32,000 nucleotides of DNA from Rickettsiales bacterium (lineage in GTDB: Bacteria > Pseudomonadota > Alphaproteobacteria > Rs-D84): contig JAITJD010000037.1 in the NCBI GenBank assembly GCA_031279085.1, positions 1 through 32,000 of the forward strand, given 5' to 3'. Shown one piece after another: positions 8,888 through 23,369 of the stretch (its first letter is position 1; every line of letters begins with the position of its first letter). Position numbers and translations under genes: made by a program. The notes under the pieces are model-generated. The model was given only the letters and a program-made list of their open reading frames with translations. It searched no databases and was not told the DNA's origin.

Positions 8888-8962
8888 GCGAGCATAGTAC
8901 AAAGGCTAGTATGCGAGCCTTCCAAGCTTGAGATGAGGGTTCGATTCCCTCTGCTCGCACCA
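8888..8962 (+). tRNA. tRNA-Gly (anticodon UCC), CCA encoded
   Basis: Cloverleaf folded by hand. Acceptor GCGAGCA/TGCTCGC, D stem GTAC/GTAT, anticodon stem CGAGC/GCTTG with loop CTTCCAA, T arm GAGGG-TTCGATT-CCCTC, discriminator A plus CCA. Total 75 nt. Confidence 0.9.
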
Positions 8963-8967
8963 TGATT

Positions 8968-9054
8968 GGGCGTGCGCCGGAGTTGGAGAGCCGGGGCAGA
9001 CTGTAAATCTGTTGGCTTATGCCTGAGCTGGTTCGAATCCAGCCACTCCCACCA
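8968..9054 (+). tRNA. tRNA-Tyr (anticodon GUA), class II with long variable arm, CCA encoded
   Basis: Acceptor GGGCGTG/CACTCCC (one C4-U69 mismatch), D arm CCGG-AGTTGGAGAG-CCGG, anticodon stem GCAGA/TCTGT with loop CTGTAAA, variable arm GGC-TTAT-GCC, T arm GCTGG-TTCGAAT-CCAGC, then A plus CCA. Total 87 nt. Confidence 0.85.
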
Positions 9055-14804: not shown

Positions 14805-15974
14805 CTATTGGCCTGTATTCTTCATAACATCGGCCAGCAGGTTTTTCACCTGCATTATAATAGCTTTGGAATCGAATCTTTCCAGTCTGCCGGCGGCGTT
14901 GCCTATCAATTTTTGCGCATCCGGCCTTTCGTGCAGTATGTCTGACATTATTTCCGCAAGCCTCTCGGCATCGCCAGGCTTGAACAATATTCCGGCATCG
15001 CCGTCCATGAGAATTTCGGCCACCCCGCTTTTGCAGTCTGACGCAATGTTCAAGGTTCCGCAGACCGCGCTTTCAACCATGACGGTCGGCAAGCCTTCGG
15101 CGCGGCTGGACAGTATATGCGCCATGGCGCCGCGCATGTATCCAAAAGGACGGGATACGGAGCCGGTGAAAATAATATTGTTTTTTATATGGGTACTTTG
15201 AGCAAGCCTCTCAAGCTTTCCGCGCAGTTTTCCATCGCCGACGATAAGCAATTTTACTTCCGGGCATTGTTCGTGGCGCAAGAAAATGTCAAATGCGCGG
15301 ATTATGGTCTCTATGTCTTTGTCCGCAGCCAGCCTGGATACGGATAAAAAATATTTTCCTGGAAATGCCGGCAGCTCTCGTGATAGCTTCTTTATGCCGC
15401 CGATGTCGATAGGGTTGTATATCCTGACTATTTTTTCGCGCCCCGATTTATGCGTTGATTGAAAATCTCGCAGAAAGCTGTCGGACAGACAGACTATTCT
15501 GTCGTATTCCCGGATTTGCCGTTCTCCAAAATGCCGGTTAAAAAAGTCTATTCCGCCATGAATCCATGTAATTTTCGCGCAGCGCGCATGTTTTAATTCC
15601 TTGATGCATGAAAAGTTTTTATAATCAATGACAATGTCGAAGTCCTTTATGGCCATATCTCGTTTCAGTCGTCGCCGCATAATTTTCTTATAAATGCTCC
15701 AAGATATCTTTCTGATGTTTTTGATCGGAAAAAAATTAAGAATCCCCCGCCACCGGAACCTGTTTGCCGCCGGGTATACTATGTGCAATTTTATATTCGG
15801 GTTTATCCCGAACCAATCCGTATAAAATTTTTCTTTCAGCGGTTCTAATAAAAAAACGGACAAATCAAAAGAATCATCTTTTAACAATTCTTCCAAAGTT
15901 CTGATGAATACATTTTCAGTGCCGCCAATAATCATGTCGGGCATAAAGAAAGCTGTTTTTATTTTGCCAATCAT
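14805..15974 (-). CDS. glycosyltransferase family 4 (GT-B, group 1)
   Basis: The C-terminal motif HILSSRAEGLPTVMVESAVCGTLNIASDCKSGVAEILMDGDAGILF is the EX7E-type GT4 signature region. Confidence 0.8.
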   Translation of the reverse strand: MIGKIKTAFFMPDMIIGGTENVFIRTLEELLKDDSFDLSVFLLEPLKEKFYTDWFGINPNIKLHIVYPAANRFRWRGILNFFPIKNIRKISWSIYKKIMRRRLKRDMAIKDFDIVIDYKNFSCIKELKHARCAKITWIHGGIDFFNRHFGERQIREYDRIVCLSDSFLRDFQSTHKSGREKIVRIYNPIDIGGIKKLSRELPAFPGKYFLSVSRLAADKDIETIIRAFDIFLRHEQCPEVKLLIVGDGKLRGKLERLAQSTHIKNNIIFTGSVSRPFGYMRGAMAHILSSRAEGLPTVMVESAVCGTLNIASDCKSGVAEILMDGDAGILFKPGDAERLAEIMSDILHERPDAQKLIGNAAGRLERFDSKAIIMQVKNLLADVMKNTGQ

Positions 15975-16082: not shown

Positions 16083-16106
16083 TTAAAAACCGCCAAAAAT
16101 TGGCGG
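16083..16106 (-). terminator. intrinsic terminator downstream of xth (minus strand)
   Basis: Read on the minus strand: CCGCCAA-ttt-TTGGCGG followed by TTTTTAAT. The stem is at 16090-16096/16100-16106 and the A-run at 16085-16089 on the plus strand. Confidence 0.6.
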
Positions 16107-16320
16107 CCGGGAAGTTAGAAAAATCAATCTTATCAATGATCCCGCAGATTTCGGGCAAGCCCTGTTGTATAACCGCGGCTTCCCGACCATGTGTCAGGAT
16201 TCGGCGCAAAAACGCCATTTATTTTGACGACGCTGTTTGCGCCGGATAAGAAAGGGATTTTCTAAGTCCCGGACTTCGAAAAGAAATCCAAAATGACTTT
16301 AATAGAATAAGTTCAAAAAG

Positions 16321-17094
16321 TCAATATGATATTTCCAGCGCCAGCCCGCAATGGTCGGTCGGTTTGACCGCGCGGCGCGGCGACATGTCAATATCGCATG
16401 ATTTCAGCAGTTTTTGCGCGGCTTTGTTCGCCAGGAAATAGTCCAGCCGCAGACCCTGGTTTTTCCCGACAGTATCGCCGCCGCGATATCCGTACCATGT
16501 ATAGCCGGTCTCATTCGGATGAAATCGCCGCCAGCAATCCAGCCAGCCCGAATCCAGCCATTCCCGCATGATTGCGCGCGCGGCCGGGGCGGATATGCTG
16601 CTGCCTTCGTAATTTTGCGGATTCCAGACATCGCGGTCTTGGATCGCCACATTGAAATCGCCGCCTATTATCACGGCTTCTTCGGAGTCGAGGAACTTTT
16701 CTATATGCCGGCCGAATTTCTCCATCCATTCGATTTTGTGCGGGAATTTCGGCGAATCCTGCGATTCCCCGTTCGGCATGTACACATTTATAAAGCGCAC
16801 CAGCCCGCCAATCGCGCATTCGATGTACCGCGCGTCAACAGATGGAAAATCGGGCAGCCCACGCGTGATATCTTCAATAGAATATTTGGAAAACACCGCG
16901 ACGCCGTTCCAGCTTTTCTGACCGAATACTTTTATGTCGTACCCGTAATCATCAAACAAAACATACGGAAAGTTTGCGTTATCCACTTTCAGTTCCTGAA
17001 CCAGGACGACATCGTATGAGCCGTTTTTTAGAATTTCCAAAAAACTTTCCGCGTGCGCCCGAATAGAATTGATGTTTAATGTCAGTATTTTCAT
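16321..17094 (-). CDS. xth: exodeoxyribonuclease III (AP endonuclease)
   Basis: MKILTLNINSIRAH..DVVLVQELK..YMPNG..IIGGDFNVA..RLDYFL..SDHCGL are EEP-family Xth motifs. Confidence 0.9.
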   Translation of the reverse strand: MKILTLNINSIRAHAESFLEILKNGSYDVVLVQELKVDNANFPYVLFDDYGYDIKVFGQKSWNGVAVFSKYSIEDITRGLPDFPSVDARYIECAIGGLVRFINVYMPNGESQDSPKFPHKIEWMEKFGRHIEKFLDSEEAVIIGGDFNVAIQDRDVWNPQNYEGSSISAPAARAIMREWLDSGWLDCWRRFHPNETGYTWYGYRGGDTVGKNQGLRLDYFLANKAAQKLLKSCDIDMSPRRAVKPTDHCGLALEISY

Positions 17095-18803: not shown

Positions 18804-18834
18804 AAAAAACCGGCCGTTCGGCCGGTTTTTTATT
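18804..18834 (+). terminator. intrinsic terminator (symmetric A-run/T-run, potentially bidirectional)
   Basis: AAAAAA-CCGGCC-gttc-GGCCGG-TTTTTT, starting 5 nt after the stop codon. Confidence 0.85.
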
Positions 18835-18974: not shown

Positions 18975-19003
18975 TTTACAAGTTTTTATCTTTCTGATAT
19001 AAT
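18975..19003 (+). promoter_or_regulatory. strong sigma70-type promoter candidate
   Basis: TTTACA (18975-18980), 17-nt spacer, TATAAT (18998-19003). It lies in an AT-rich stretch ~180 nt upstream of ATG 19182. Confidence 0.55.
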
Positions 19004-19009
19004 GACCGC

Positions 19010-19181
19010 GTCGCAGAGTTCTTTCTGTGATGGGGCTTGACAACCTCTCTTTTACGCGTCCTTGGGGACGAAAAACTCCTGTCAACGGCAGGAGTAGTCG
19101 AGGAATATATCAAAACTCGGCTGCTATTTCGTAAAAGATAGTTGTCAAACTCCTGCCACCTTTTCATAAGGAGTGTGATGC
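19010..19181 (+). promoter_or_regulatory. structured 5' leader (candidate riboswitch/thermosensor-type translational control element)
   Basis: An 8-bp long-range helix, TTGACAAC (19037-19044) / GTTGTCAA (19141-19148), encloses four hairpins: 19057-19070, 19075-19095, 19096-19122 and 19124-19141. The 9-mer AAACTCCTG occurs twice (19073-19081 and 19147-19155). ACTCCT (19149-19154) is complementary to the SD AGGAGT (19169-19174). GGCAGGAGT (19087-19095) is complementary to ACTCCTGCC (19149-19157). Confidence 0.5.
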
Positions 19182-19529
19182 ATGAAAAAATTATTTGCGG
19201 CGATTATCGCCGTTTTCCCCATGCTGGCGTTCGGAAACGTCGACCTGATTGCGCGGCGCGCCGAATTGGAAAAGCAGATTGAGTTGGTCGATTCCGAAAT
19301 CGCGCGCTGCAAGAAACAGCAGAAGAATTGGAAAATCGCAACCATAGTCGGCAGCGTCGGAACAGTCGCGACCGGAATCGGCGCGATAGCGCAGCAATCG
19401 GCCATCAATGAAAATAAAAAAGATATTGATTTGCTTAAAAAGCGATCGGACGCGAATATGAAAATTATTTTAGATAATAAGCAAATTCTGAAAGAGGAAA
19501 CTGAAGCACTGGAAGGAGTTACGAAATGA
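19182..19529 (+). CDS. small secreted/membrane protein, paralog A (signal peptide, Cys-containing coiled coil, Gly-rich hydrophobic segment)
   Basis: Signal peptide MKKLFAAIIAVFPMLAFG, then ELEKQIELVDSEIARCKKQQKNWKIATIVGSVGTVATGIGAIAQQ. AAGGAG lies 8 nt upstream of the ATG. Confidence 0.65.
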   Translation: MKKLFAAIIAVFPMLAFGNVDLIARRAELEKQIELVDSEIARCKKQQKNWKIATIVGSVGTVATGIGAIAQQSAINENKKDIDLLKKRSDANMKIILDNKQILKEETEALEGVTK

Positions 19530-20077
19530 AAAAACTTCTGATTTTTATATTCATGCTCTGCGCAGCGGCGAATGCTAATGCGATTGTTGTTAAGAATTCG
19601 TTAGACTCGTTAGATGTTCAGGTACGATCTCTGGAATCCGATTTGGCGCAAAAAATGTCGGAATTGGAATCTTGCGCAAAAAAAACTAAAAACTTTCAAA
19701 TCGCAGGCGGCATAACTCTTGGCTTGACCGCCGCCGGCGCAGCAGTGAATATATCGCAGTACAACAAGCAGAAATCACAAAAAGCGCAGGCTGGCATAAT
19801 ACTCGCAAAGCTTGAAGCCGAAGAGGCTGAAAAGACGAAGACTCTTGCTGATATATATGCAACTGACGCGGAGCAGAGAGTCGTACTTGAAAAAATGCAA
19901 AACGTAGATCGCGATAAAGTAAATGGATTAATAAATAATAATTTTACAAAATCCGAACTTGCAAGAATTGTCGAAATAGGTAATTTATTAGAATCCAATC
20001 CTGATATGCCCTTAGGAGATTCGGATAAAAACTTGCTACTAAAAATTAGCAACTTGGTGTATAAGTCGTCATTGTAA
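19526..20077 (+). CDS. small secreted/membrane protein, paralog B (same architecture plus ~100-aa C-terminal extension)
   Basis: Signal peptide MKKLLIFIFMLCAAANA, then SLESDLAQKMSELESCAKKTKNFQIAGGITLGLTAAGAAVNISQ, which aligns with paralog A. There is an ATGA start/stop overlap with the upstream gene. Confidence 0.65.
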   Translation: MKKLLIFIFMLCAAANANAIVVKNSLDSLDVQVRSLESDLAQKMSELESCAKKTKNFQIAGGITLGLTAAGAAVNISQYNKQKSQKAQAGIILAKLEAEEAEKTKTLADIYATDAEQRVVLEKMQNVDRDKVNGLINNNFTKSELARIVEIGNLLESNPDMPLGDSDKNLLLKISNLVYKSSL

Positions 20078-22796: not shown

Positions 22797-23369
22797 TTAT
22801 TGACCTGTATAATAGCAAGTTTGCATAAATTGCCAGTTTCCTGAATAATCGCTGCCATTGGGCGGCGAGGCATAGCATTTGCTTTTTGTGGTATTATCTC
22901 CTGCGACGCTGGTTCCGCCTGTCGGGCAAATCTCGCAGCCGGAAGTTCCATTAGTGCTGGTGCCGTAATACCCCGCTGCACAACGATAGGCGGTTGAAGA
23001 GTTGCAAGTATTGCAGCTGCATGATTTGGTTGTCTTTTTCTGGTATCCTGTCCCGTATGCGCTCCAATCAGCATCGCTGGTGCAATTCGTGCAGCCGGTG
23101 CAGGATATAATGCATTCATTTAATATGCATGTATAACCGCTGCCGCAATGCGAATCGGTTGCACATTCGATGGTATAGTAAATTTTCGAACCGCATGTGC
23201 AGGTGTCGTAGGCAGAGGATATAAATGTGCAAGCATCATTATCAAAAAACAGACCGGTGCAGGTCTCGCTTGGTTGGCAGGCTGGTGTCGAGCATTTTGC
23301 AAATGCGCTGATGCAGCAAAAAATCACTGCAAAGCAAACAAAAATTGTCCGCATAATAAATTTTTTCAT
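22797..23369 (-). CDS. secreted cysteine-rich protein (190 aa; 21 Cys after the signal peptide; Thr/Ser/Gly/Tyr-rich)
   Basis: Signal peptide MKKFIMRTIFVCFAVIFCCISAFA|K. Dense CxC/CxxC spacing (TCTCG, SCTGCTNCT, SCSCNTCN). The C-terminal segment CAAGYYGTSTNGTSGCEICPTGGTSVAGDNTTKSKC resembles ephrin-receptor-like/VSP-type Cys repeats. SD AAGGGGG (23382-23376) lies 6 nt before the ATG. Confidence 0.7.
   Translation of the reverse strand: MKKFIMRTIFVCFAVIFCCISAFAKCSTPACQPSETCTGLFFDNDACTFISSAYDTCTCGSKIYYTIECATDSHCGSGYTCILNECIISCTGCTNCTSDADWSAYGTGYQKKTTKSCSCNTCNSSTAYRCAAGYYGTSTNGTSGCEICPTGGTSVAGDNTTKSKCYASPPNGSDYSGNWQFMQTCYYTGQ

Follow-up and report, generated by a model that had tools for sequence, protein, structure and literature searches.

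What is the structured RNA that precedes two small envelope-protein genes in the chromosome of an uncultured Rickettsiales bacterium, and does it act as a switch? The stretch of DNA analysed here, 32,000 nt of contig JAITJD010000037.1 from assembly GCA_031279085.1 (hereafter the window), carries this untranslated leader at 19010-19181, and a sequence-only reading had taken it for a two-state translational switch of a riboswitch class that it did not recognise. Comparative analyses point to a different relationship. On balance, and with the reservations set out below, the leader is probably a diverged and miniaturised antisense module of the kind represented by the c4 RNA of phage P1 and by sRNA-Xcc1, re-used as a self-contained cis-acting two-state leader of a chromosomal envelope operon. 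The elements of the leader and of its promoter are as follows.

18975-19003, + strand: sigma-70-type promoter, with -35 box TTTACA (18975-18980), a 17-nt spacer and -10 box TATAAT (18998-19003)
19010-19031, + strand: H1, 5'-terminal hairpin GUCGCAGAG-UUCU-UUCUGUGAU, counterpart of hairpin 1 of the Rfam c4-a1b1 family
19032-19047, + strand: H2, 4-bp hairpin GGGG/CCUC with the 8-nt loop CUUGACAA, an alternative local hairpin from the c4-a1b1 alignment
19037-19044, + strand: a1, UUGACAA(C), inside the H2 loop
19048-19056, + strand: b1, UCUUUUACG, second target segment, complementary to b'
19057-19070, + strand: H3, variable spacer hairpin CGUCC-UUGG-GGACG of the window fold
19073-19081, + strand: P1x, first AAACUCCUG copy, the upstream duplicate of the 3' strand of stem P1, making hairpin H4 with GGCAGGAGU
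19087-19095, + strand: GGCAGGAGU, 5' strand of stem P1, whose partner is either P1x (closed fold) or 19149-19157 (c4-like fold)
19093-19125, + strand: H5, equal to P2 of the c4-like domain, a truncated counterpart of a long P2
19123-19142, + strand: P3, GCUAUUU-CGUAAA-AGAUAGU, with b' (CGUAAAAGA, 19130-19138) in and beside its loop
19141-19148, + strand: a', GUUGUCAA, complementary to a1, forming the J3/1 junction of the c4-like fold
19149-19160, + strand: ACUCCUGCC, at once 3' strand of stem P1, second repeat copy and anti-Shine-Dalgarno (anti-SD) segment, plus an ACC tail
19169-19184, + strand: Shine-Dalgarno (SD) AGGAGU (19169-19174) and ATG of the first gene (19182)

The near-consensus promoter proposed earlier lies exactly where it had been placed, with 11 of 12 consensus matches, and carries a TG extension of the -10 box at 18995-18996. 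Transcription would start at about 19010, approximately 7 nt past TATAAT, and the untranslated leader of about 172 nt ends at ATG 19182. A terminator-like bidirectional hairpin flanked by A and T runs (GGCCGTTCGGCC, 18808-18827) is found 3' of the preceding acyl-CoA ligase gene and speaks against mere read-through into the leader from upstream. The claim of a structured leader also held, with a folding energy of -68.8 kcal/mol against -43.2 +/- 4.0 kcal/mol for shuffled sequences (z = -6.35) and conservation in relatives. In its most stable, closed fold, the predicted 8-bp closing helix is present, TTGACAAC (19037-19044) being complementary to GTTGTCAA (19141-19148), and it extends further through UCUUUUACG (19048-19056) with CGUAAAAGA (19130-19138) into a bipartite a1b1:a'b' duplex of about 17 bp (19037-19056 with 19130-19148). 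This duplex encloses three hairpins (H3 19057-19070, H4 19075-19095 and H5 19093-19125) and not the four announced, H1 being outside. The repeat duplication stood as described: AAACTCCTG is found exactly twice in the 32 kb, at 19073 and 19147, for 0.11 occurrences expected. The first ACUCCUG copy holds GGCAGGAGU in the local hairpin H4, and ACTCCTGCC (19149-19157) is perfectly complementary over 9 nt to GGCAGGAGT (19087-19095), both as foreseen. Alone, a 9-nt inverted match within 400 nt is not improbable (about 0.3 expected, by our own estimate), and it is the conservation of the pairings with compensatory changes in homologous loci that sets them above chance.

The pairings of GGCAGGAGU with the first and with the second ACUCCUG copy are mutually exclusive, and both are kept through compensatory changes in relatives. 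When the second is imposed, the constrained fold is a three-way junction of P1, P2 and P3, in which b' falls in the loop of P3 and a' forms part of the P3-P1 junction. Its stem P1, GGCAGGAGU:ACUCCUGCC, has 9 bp.

Homologous leaders were sought through the downstream genes. Single-sequence protein searches with the two genes gave only 3 and 1 relatives, a profile search gave 56 relatives of the first protein, and the DNA 5' of the genes of ten relatives was read (loci are designated L001 and following). The leader precedes operon homologues in L001, L031, L032, L033, L036, L041 and, with an 80-aa open reading frame (ORF) interposed, L034, and each of these folds independently to the closed architecture. 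L001, whose protein is 65% identical, has the same leader with compensatory changes such as TTGATAAC/GTTATCAA. L031 keeps all the elements in a largely different sequence, with GACACAG/CUGUGUU as H1, an H2 loop GUCAUAAC against GUUAUGA, an inner helix AAUUACUGG/CCAGUAAUU and the repeat CCUCCAA(CC) with its partner GGUUGGAGG. A longer version, about 210-260 nt in length and unchanged in the order of its parts, is present in L032, L033, L034, L036, L038 and L041. Upstream copies equivalent to P1x occur in L001, L031, L032-L036, L041, a second leader of the window and phage P1, and an H2-type hairpin (3-4 bp with a loop of about 7-9 nt) in all relatives, its stem co-varying. No such leader was found in the upstream DNA of L004-L006 and L039/L040. 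Moreover, a contig scan of metagenomes and genomes with the pattern TTGAYAACN{12,40}ACGAAAAAN{0,1}CTCCTG gave the already known L002 as its sole real match, the other 23 being chance matches.

MAFFT was unable to align short and long forms in register, hence the use of element tables per locus, duplex cross-matrices and a covariance model. The covariation check on homologous upstream regions was made on the three short-form sequences (window, L001 and L031). The closed fold has 88% of its cells paired, with 12 both-sided changes against 4.8 +/- 1.6 in shuffles and 0-4 in slid controls. The c4-like fold has 91% paired, all 9 pairs of stem P1 being formed in each of the three sequences, with 3 double changes. 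Both sides are changed in 4 of the 9 pairs of H1 and in 3 pairs of H5, and the outer pair of H3 passes from C-G in the window to U-A in L031.

A shorter variant is represented by L002 (2880-3003), as well as L003 and L028. It keeps the 5' part, and what is missing is precisely the stretch from one AAACTCCTG copy to the other, which is consistent with deletion or duplication between direct repeats. In L002, UUGAUAC, similar to its own a1 loop UUGAUAA, and UUUUAC, similar to b1 of the window, flank the SD, and leaders of this type may retain targets comparable to the a2/b2 sites of phage P1 with no c4-like domain. In L031, the 13-nt UUAUAGUUAUGAA occurs twice, at a' and over the true start codon (349-361 and 407-419), therefore a1 could pair with the translation start region; the gene caller had begun this ORF 57 nt too early.

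What the leader would control differs from the initial proposal. Complementarity between ACTCCT (19149-19154) and AGGAGT (19169-19174), put forward as the OFF state, is real, and the ribosome-binding site is mostly paired in the fold ensemble of the window. This masking is however not the conserved output, since most relatives have a terminator over that strand. An intrinsic-terminator hairpin shares 3-4 nt of its 5' side with the 3' strand of stem P1 in L001, L031, L032, L033, L034, L036, L041 and the second leader of the window. In the leader at 19010-19181, the 3' half of the terminator is deleted relative to L001 and the ACUCCU:SD pairing remains.

Is the closing helix part of a ligand-binding junction? 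In a metabolite or ion riboswitch, the junction would be the aptamer and a ligand would select the fold controlling the terminator or the ribosome-binding site. Two alternative states, coupled to an expression platform (terminator or SD) whose pairing excludes part of the sensor fold, are in line with such a device, as is the position of the family before functionally related envelope genes (small secreted proteins and a GT4 glycosyltransferase). The best argument is the strongly conserved P2 internal loop of the long relatives (UUAUAAAAYAG...GAAAG, within UGGUUAUAAAAYAG ... GAAAG). Yet the short form does not have this loop and keeps the switch parts, and the invariant nucleotides are few (17 columns across eight leaders) and mostly in stems. 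Above all, the closing helix differs in sequence at every locus and is for this reason not a conserved ligand pocket. Duplex energies were computed for every a1b1 with every b'a' of nine loci, the eight leaders and phage P1. Own partners gave a mean of -18.6 kcal/mol and foreign ones -4.8 +/- 2.7 kcal/mol, the own partner being the best in all nine loci. The two leaders of the window are orthogonal, with -18.1 (leader at 19010-19181) and -13.4 kcal/mol for their own pairs and -2.2 and -3.9 kcal/mol crosswise. This behaviour fits an antisense-target pair and not a ligand pocket. The aptamer-like junction of the sequence-only reading is accordingly replaced by the a1b1:a'b' antisense-target duplex, and we consider a riboswitch improbable, all the more as the parts map to c4, sRNA-Xcc1 and IsrK RNAs, for which RNA-RNA pairing is the established mechanism.

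The correspondence with c4 emerged from the Rfam search that had been advised. At curated thresholds the leader has no match. In a permissive search, 18997-19051 aligned over the full length of the c4-a1b1 model (RF03163), which describes the target motif found 5' of the c4 antisense RNA in phage P1, with 24.1 bits, below the cut-off of 46.7 (E = 6e-4 in 501 nt and 0.039 in 32 kb), and the same model gave 16.9 bits on L003. The annotated phage P1 region, run as a control, gave 68.8 bits with C4, 51 with c4-a1b1 and 35 with isrK, the last model matching the a1b1 region of the phage leader. The C4 model (RF01695, cut-off 45 bits) had no match in the leader at E <= 10 in searches of 501 and 116 nt, nor at E <= 1 in the whole window. 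Part by part, the two leaders compare as follows.

-10 box, 6 nt before H1: phage P1 TATAGT; window TATAAT
H1: phage P1 GUCGUAG...CUGCGAC; window GUCGCAG...CUGUGAU
H2, 4 bp and 8-nt a1 loop: phage P1 CGGU-UUUGACAG-CCUG, with a1 annotated in the loop; window GGGG-CUUGACAA-CCUC
a1: phage P1 UUGACAG; window UUGACAA
b1: phage P1, shortly after H2; window, immediately after H2
b': P3 loop of the three-way junction in both
a', in the P3-P1 junction (J3/1): phage P1 CUGUCAA; window UUGUCAA
3' end: phage P1 GUCCUGCCACCUG; window CUCCUGCCACCUU

The order of parts is thus common to both: promoter, H1, H2 with a1, b1, three-way junction, CCACC-type 3' end and regulated genes on the same transcript. The c4-a1b1 model itself aligns TATAAT of the window onto TATAGT of phage P1, and the gap of 6 nt between the -10 box and H1 recurs in the window, L001, L002, L031 and the annotated P1c4 promoter. 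An 11-nt stretch of the 3' end, UCCUGCCACCU, is identical, stem P1 is followed by an RCC tail as in c4 (ACC in the window, GCC in L001 and L031), and the first AAACUCCUG copy has its counterpart in the phage in UUACGCCC, which lies upstream and could base-pair with the 5' strand of the phage stem P1. Several differences are also apparent. Stem P1 has 9 bp in the window and about 18 bp in phage P1, where alone the c4 fold is the minimum-energy structure. The phage has a strong a2/b2 site over the ribosome-binding site of icd, which is lacking at the ribosome-binding site of the window. The setting of the window is chromosomal, non-prophage, with small envelope proteins in place of icd/ant. The leader does not, then, belong to an unknown class: its parts correspond one-to-one to those of phage P1 c4 and of sRNA-Xcc1-like relatives, and what seems new is the lack of a classical downstream target and the apparently cis mode of action. 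For some c4 RNAs, overlap with a terminator has been noted and cis-regulation raised as a possibility (Weinberg et al.).

A second leader, of the long type, occurs in the window between xth and a GT4 glycosyltransferase gene (14805-15974, - strand), upstream of the latter. It was matched at 16099-16190 on the minus strand (64.3 bits, E = 5.9e-13) by a covariance model, R1, built from five long-type leaders, and comprises the following features.

16085-16324, - strand: second leader copy, long type
16289-16271, - strand: H1, preceded by the promoter-like TTGACT-17-TAAAGT and followed by an H2 loop CUUAGAAAA (a1)
within 16085-16324, - strand: b1 UCUUAUC, b' GAUAAGA, a' UUUUCUAA and stem P1 GGUCGGGAAG / CUUCCCGGCC
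16107-16085, - strand: terminator, overlapping the 3' strand of stem P1

The long type links the family to sRNA-Xcc1 (RF02221), an element of integron cassettes, plasmids and prophages that precedes, among others, symE. Long-type leaders align with its model at full length and below the cut-off of 53 bits (L034 41.0, second copy of the window 39.7, L041 35.9 and L033 34.8 bits). They share P1, P2 and P3, the P2 internal loop AUA(C/A)AA...GAA and a J3/1 of about 6-7 nt, with a CCACC-like tail (GCC) in the second copy of the window and in L033. Conversely, the leader at 19010-19181 has no match to this model and lacks the conserved P2 internal loop. R1 also matches sRNA-Xcc1-like loci in a Desulfovibrio plasmid (33.9 bits) and in Aeromonas (25.6 bits). 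With filters off, its best matches in the short forms fall on the predicted domains (window 19085-19163, 14.5 bits, E = 0.0012; L001, 17.2 bits; L031, 12.2 bits). On phage P1 c4, R1 is not significant (4.1 bits), so the c4 link rests on the a1b1 match, the part-by-part correspondence and the shared 3' end.

At these two sRNA-Xcc1-like loci, L043 (Nitratidesulfovibrio plasmid, 760-1020) and L044 (Aeromonas caviae, 770-1010), the junction and the P3 loop of the small RNA have complementary sequence upstream, in a hairpin loop (CUUGAACA and CGUCGAAA) and the stretch after it. Both have a hairpin overlapping the 3' strand of stem P1, as in the present family, but an intrinsic terminator (..CCCGUCAG..UUUUUUUAUGCCC) separates their a1b1 element from the junction RNA, which is not seen in this family. 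Judging from the plasmid and chromosome examples examined, such a partner site upstream may be a general feature, which would make sRNA-Xcc1 one half of a larger c4-like leader. sRNA-Xcc1 has been found directly upstream of a gene (PMC12444791). A further parallel is IsrK of Salmonella Gifsy-1 (RF01394), which among the relatives of the 5' part has been studied best. Experiments have shown two structures for it, one organised around a long-range helix and inactive, the other active, and a short RNA from the same promoter tips the balance in trans (PMC4825925). Here too a stable and presumably inactive structure with a long-range helix is opposed to a less stable alternative. The isrK model nevertheless has no match in the window, the leader at 19010-19181 lacks an internal terminator for a short isoform, and the downstream genes are unrelated.

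The alternative to a cis leader suggested by these systems is that the locus mainly encodes a small RNA acting in trans. Termination or RNase P processing would release it, its targets would be transcripts of its own locus (a1b1 of nascent RNAs) or unlinked ones, and the operon would simply share its promoter as in P1 c4-icd-ant. The phage P1 c4 RNA and the P4 CI RNA, the latter with its seqA/seqC, are processed from leaders, pair with sites on their own transcript and act in trans, and sRNA-Xcc1 was described as a trans-acting small RNA and not as a cis switch. Of the c4-type release by RNase P, which yields an RNA of roughly 77 nt, the ACC tail after stem P1 is the one sign visible in the window. 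The terminator of the relatives directly follows the domain, the RCC tail is that of c4, and the locus-specific a/b pairs resemble the immunity specificity of the P1/P7 type. However, a downstream a2/b2 site above shuffled level was found in none of the leaders examined. The b'a' duplex with the downstream candidate reaches -8.6 kcal/mol, against -6.6 +/- 1.9 kcal/mol for shuffles and -21.1 kcal/mol in phage P1, and a degenerate UUCAUAA is all that stands at the a2 position in the window. In addition, the stable fold occupies a'b' with its own a1b1 and leaves no free antisense, and the leader at 19010-19181 has no terminator, hence no discrete small RNA end is predicted for it. We thus hold a mainly trans-acting role to be doubtful.

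As a cis-acting c4-type leader, the RNA would operate as follows. In the closed fold, the molecule would pair its a1 and b1 segments with its own a' and b', and the copy at 19075-19081 would hold GGCAGGAGU in H4. The second copy, ACUCCUGCC (19149-19157), is then free, because the first occupies GGCAGGAGU. The freed strand would serve as the 5' half of the terminator in relatives and as the SD mask in the window, OFF in both cases. In the c4-like fold, H2 would close locally and GGCAGGAGU with ACUCCUGCC would form stem P1 of the three-way junction, sequestering the anti-SD or terminator strand and turning expression ON. The direction of regulation and the interconversion of the two folds in vivo are inferred from this model. 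By analogy with IsrK, P1 c4 and P4 CI, the leading trigger candidates would be processing, with RNase P or RNase III as the enzyme, and an RNA made at the same locus that engages a1b1 or a'b' in trans.

Several observations weigh against this interpretation. The closed form is the minimum-energy structure in all eight leaders. Imposing stem P1, as in the c4-like fold proposed to be ON, carries a penalty of 8-18 kcal/mol in every member, so that switching requires a trigger or kinetic control. When this stem is imposed on L001, the released first ACUCCU copy re-pairs with the ribosome-binding site; since ACUCCU and its AGGAGU-like partner are each present twice, the partner swap alone does not free this site. 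Of the two-state translational switch initially proposed, the exclusive and conserved pairings are consequently retained and the release of the SD by partner swap alone is not. The anti-SD:SD helix is without compensatory support in the alignment of window, L001 and L031, and fails in L031. The overlap between stem P1 and terminator is merely 3-4 nt, and the covariation alignment is a small sample. The C4 and sRNA-Xcc1 models are without match to 19066-19181 at E <= 10, and the link from short to long form depends on weak covariance-model scores together with architecture and shared downstream genes. Finally, in L038 (80-108), whose 3' half is common with L036, the H2 loop UAUCUCAA is not complementary to its own a', an exception to the a1:a' rule that is possibly a recombinant.

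These energies also bear on a simpler explanation, in which the leader is a constitutive structural element or an RNA thermometer and the alternative pairing a by-product of inverted or direct duplication. A hairpin stands at the presumed +1 position, the SD is masked in the stable fold, and the absence in L002 of everything between the repeat copies is consistent with duplication or deletion at direct repeats. Against a thermometer, the energy gap between the folds barely shifts from 20 to 42 C (13.7 to 11.5 kcal/mol), and most relatives have a terminator in place of SD masking. Against a by-product, the complementarity of stem P1 is kept by compensation and is at least 2 bp longer than that of H4 in the window, L001, L031 and L036. 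Such an explanation appears very improbable to us, slightly more so than a riboswitch.

Other candidates considered for the same DNA were discarded. CsrA-type GGA sites were set aside, as the upstream GGA is in a stem and not in a loop. A leader peptide of 34 codons could be read from ATG 19030, but the corresponding frame ends after 12 codons in L001 and its ATG is absent from L002. The substitutions in a minus-strand ORF (18976-19167, 63 aa) are compensatory for the plus-strand RNA helices. The same plus-strand compensation applies to a minus-strand terminator-like site (19095-19075), whose A-run is absent from long-type relatives.

The operon placed behind the leader has the following coordinates.

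19182-20077, + strand: operon of 115-aa and 183-aa proteins, stop and start codons overlapping, translationally coupled

Both proteins have a signal peptide, a coiled coil and a Gly-rich hydrophobic segment, without match to any Pfam, PHROG or NCBIfam family. The first carries the motif DSEIARC(E/K)K..K.WK.ATI(I/V)GG.G.VA(S/T)G.G. This two-gene family is widespread in metagenomes (loci L001-L042) in varied neighbourhoods, once between rpoA and rpsK, and some loci add a third and a fourth small gene. A phage origin of the operon found no support, given that it has no relatives on viral contigs and no PHROG family. Its neighbours in the window are housekeeping genes (xth, acyl-CoA ligase, mnmE, ruvA and yebC), with nothing prophage-like nearby. 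Elsewhere in the window, the minus-strand ORF 22797-23369 encodes a cysteine-rich protein of 190 aa that has a signal peptide and matches no Pfam family, and two adjacent tRNA genes (68.2 and 39.3 bits) are located at 8888-9051.

The c4-type reading can be carried one step further, to a proposal that we regard as speculative and rather unlikely as a whole. The module would have been domesticated, antisense and target being fused in one leader, to give a family of orthogonal, locus-addressed switches used repeatedly by Rickettsiales-like bacteria, at least twice in these 32 kb, to gate envelope genes, with an RNA of the same locus in trans as their driver. Processed junction RNA, for instance, would titrate the a1b1 segment of nascent transcripts, resulting in self-reinforcing, bistable expression at each locus independently of the others.

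RNAs of the c4, CI, IsrK and sRNA-Xcc1 kinds have been described in phages, integron cassettes and islands, and the genes under their control there are toxic or lytic. The same list of parts is now found in the chromosome of uncultured Rickettsiales-like bacteria, before ordinary-looking envelope genes. If the interpretation is correct, a phage immunity RNA would be convertible into a general cis switch with programmable, non-cross-talking specificity. It further suggests that many of the RNAs annotated as sRNA-Xcc1 could be one half of a larger leader, and it would provide a handle on the regulation of a widespread and uncharacterised two-gene family of small secreted proteins.

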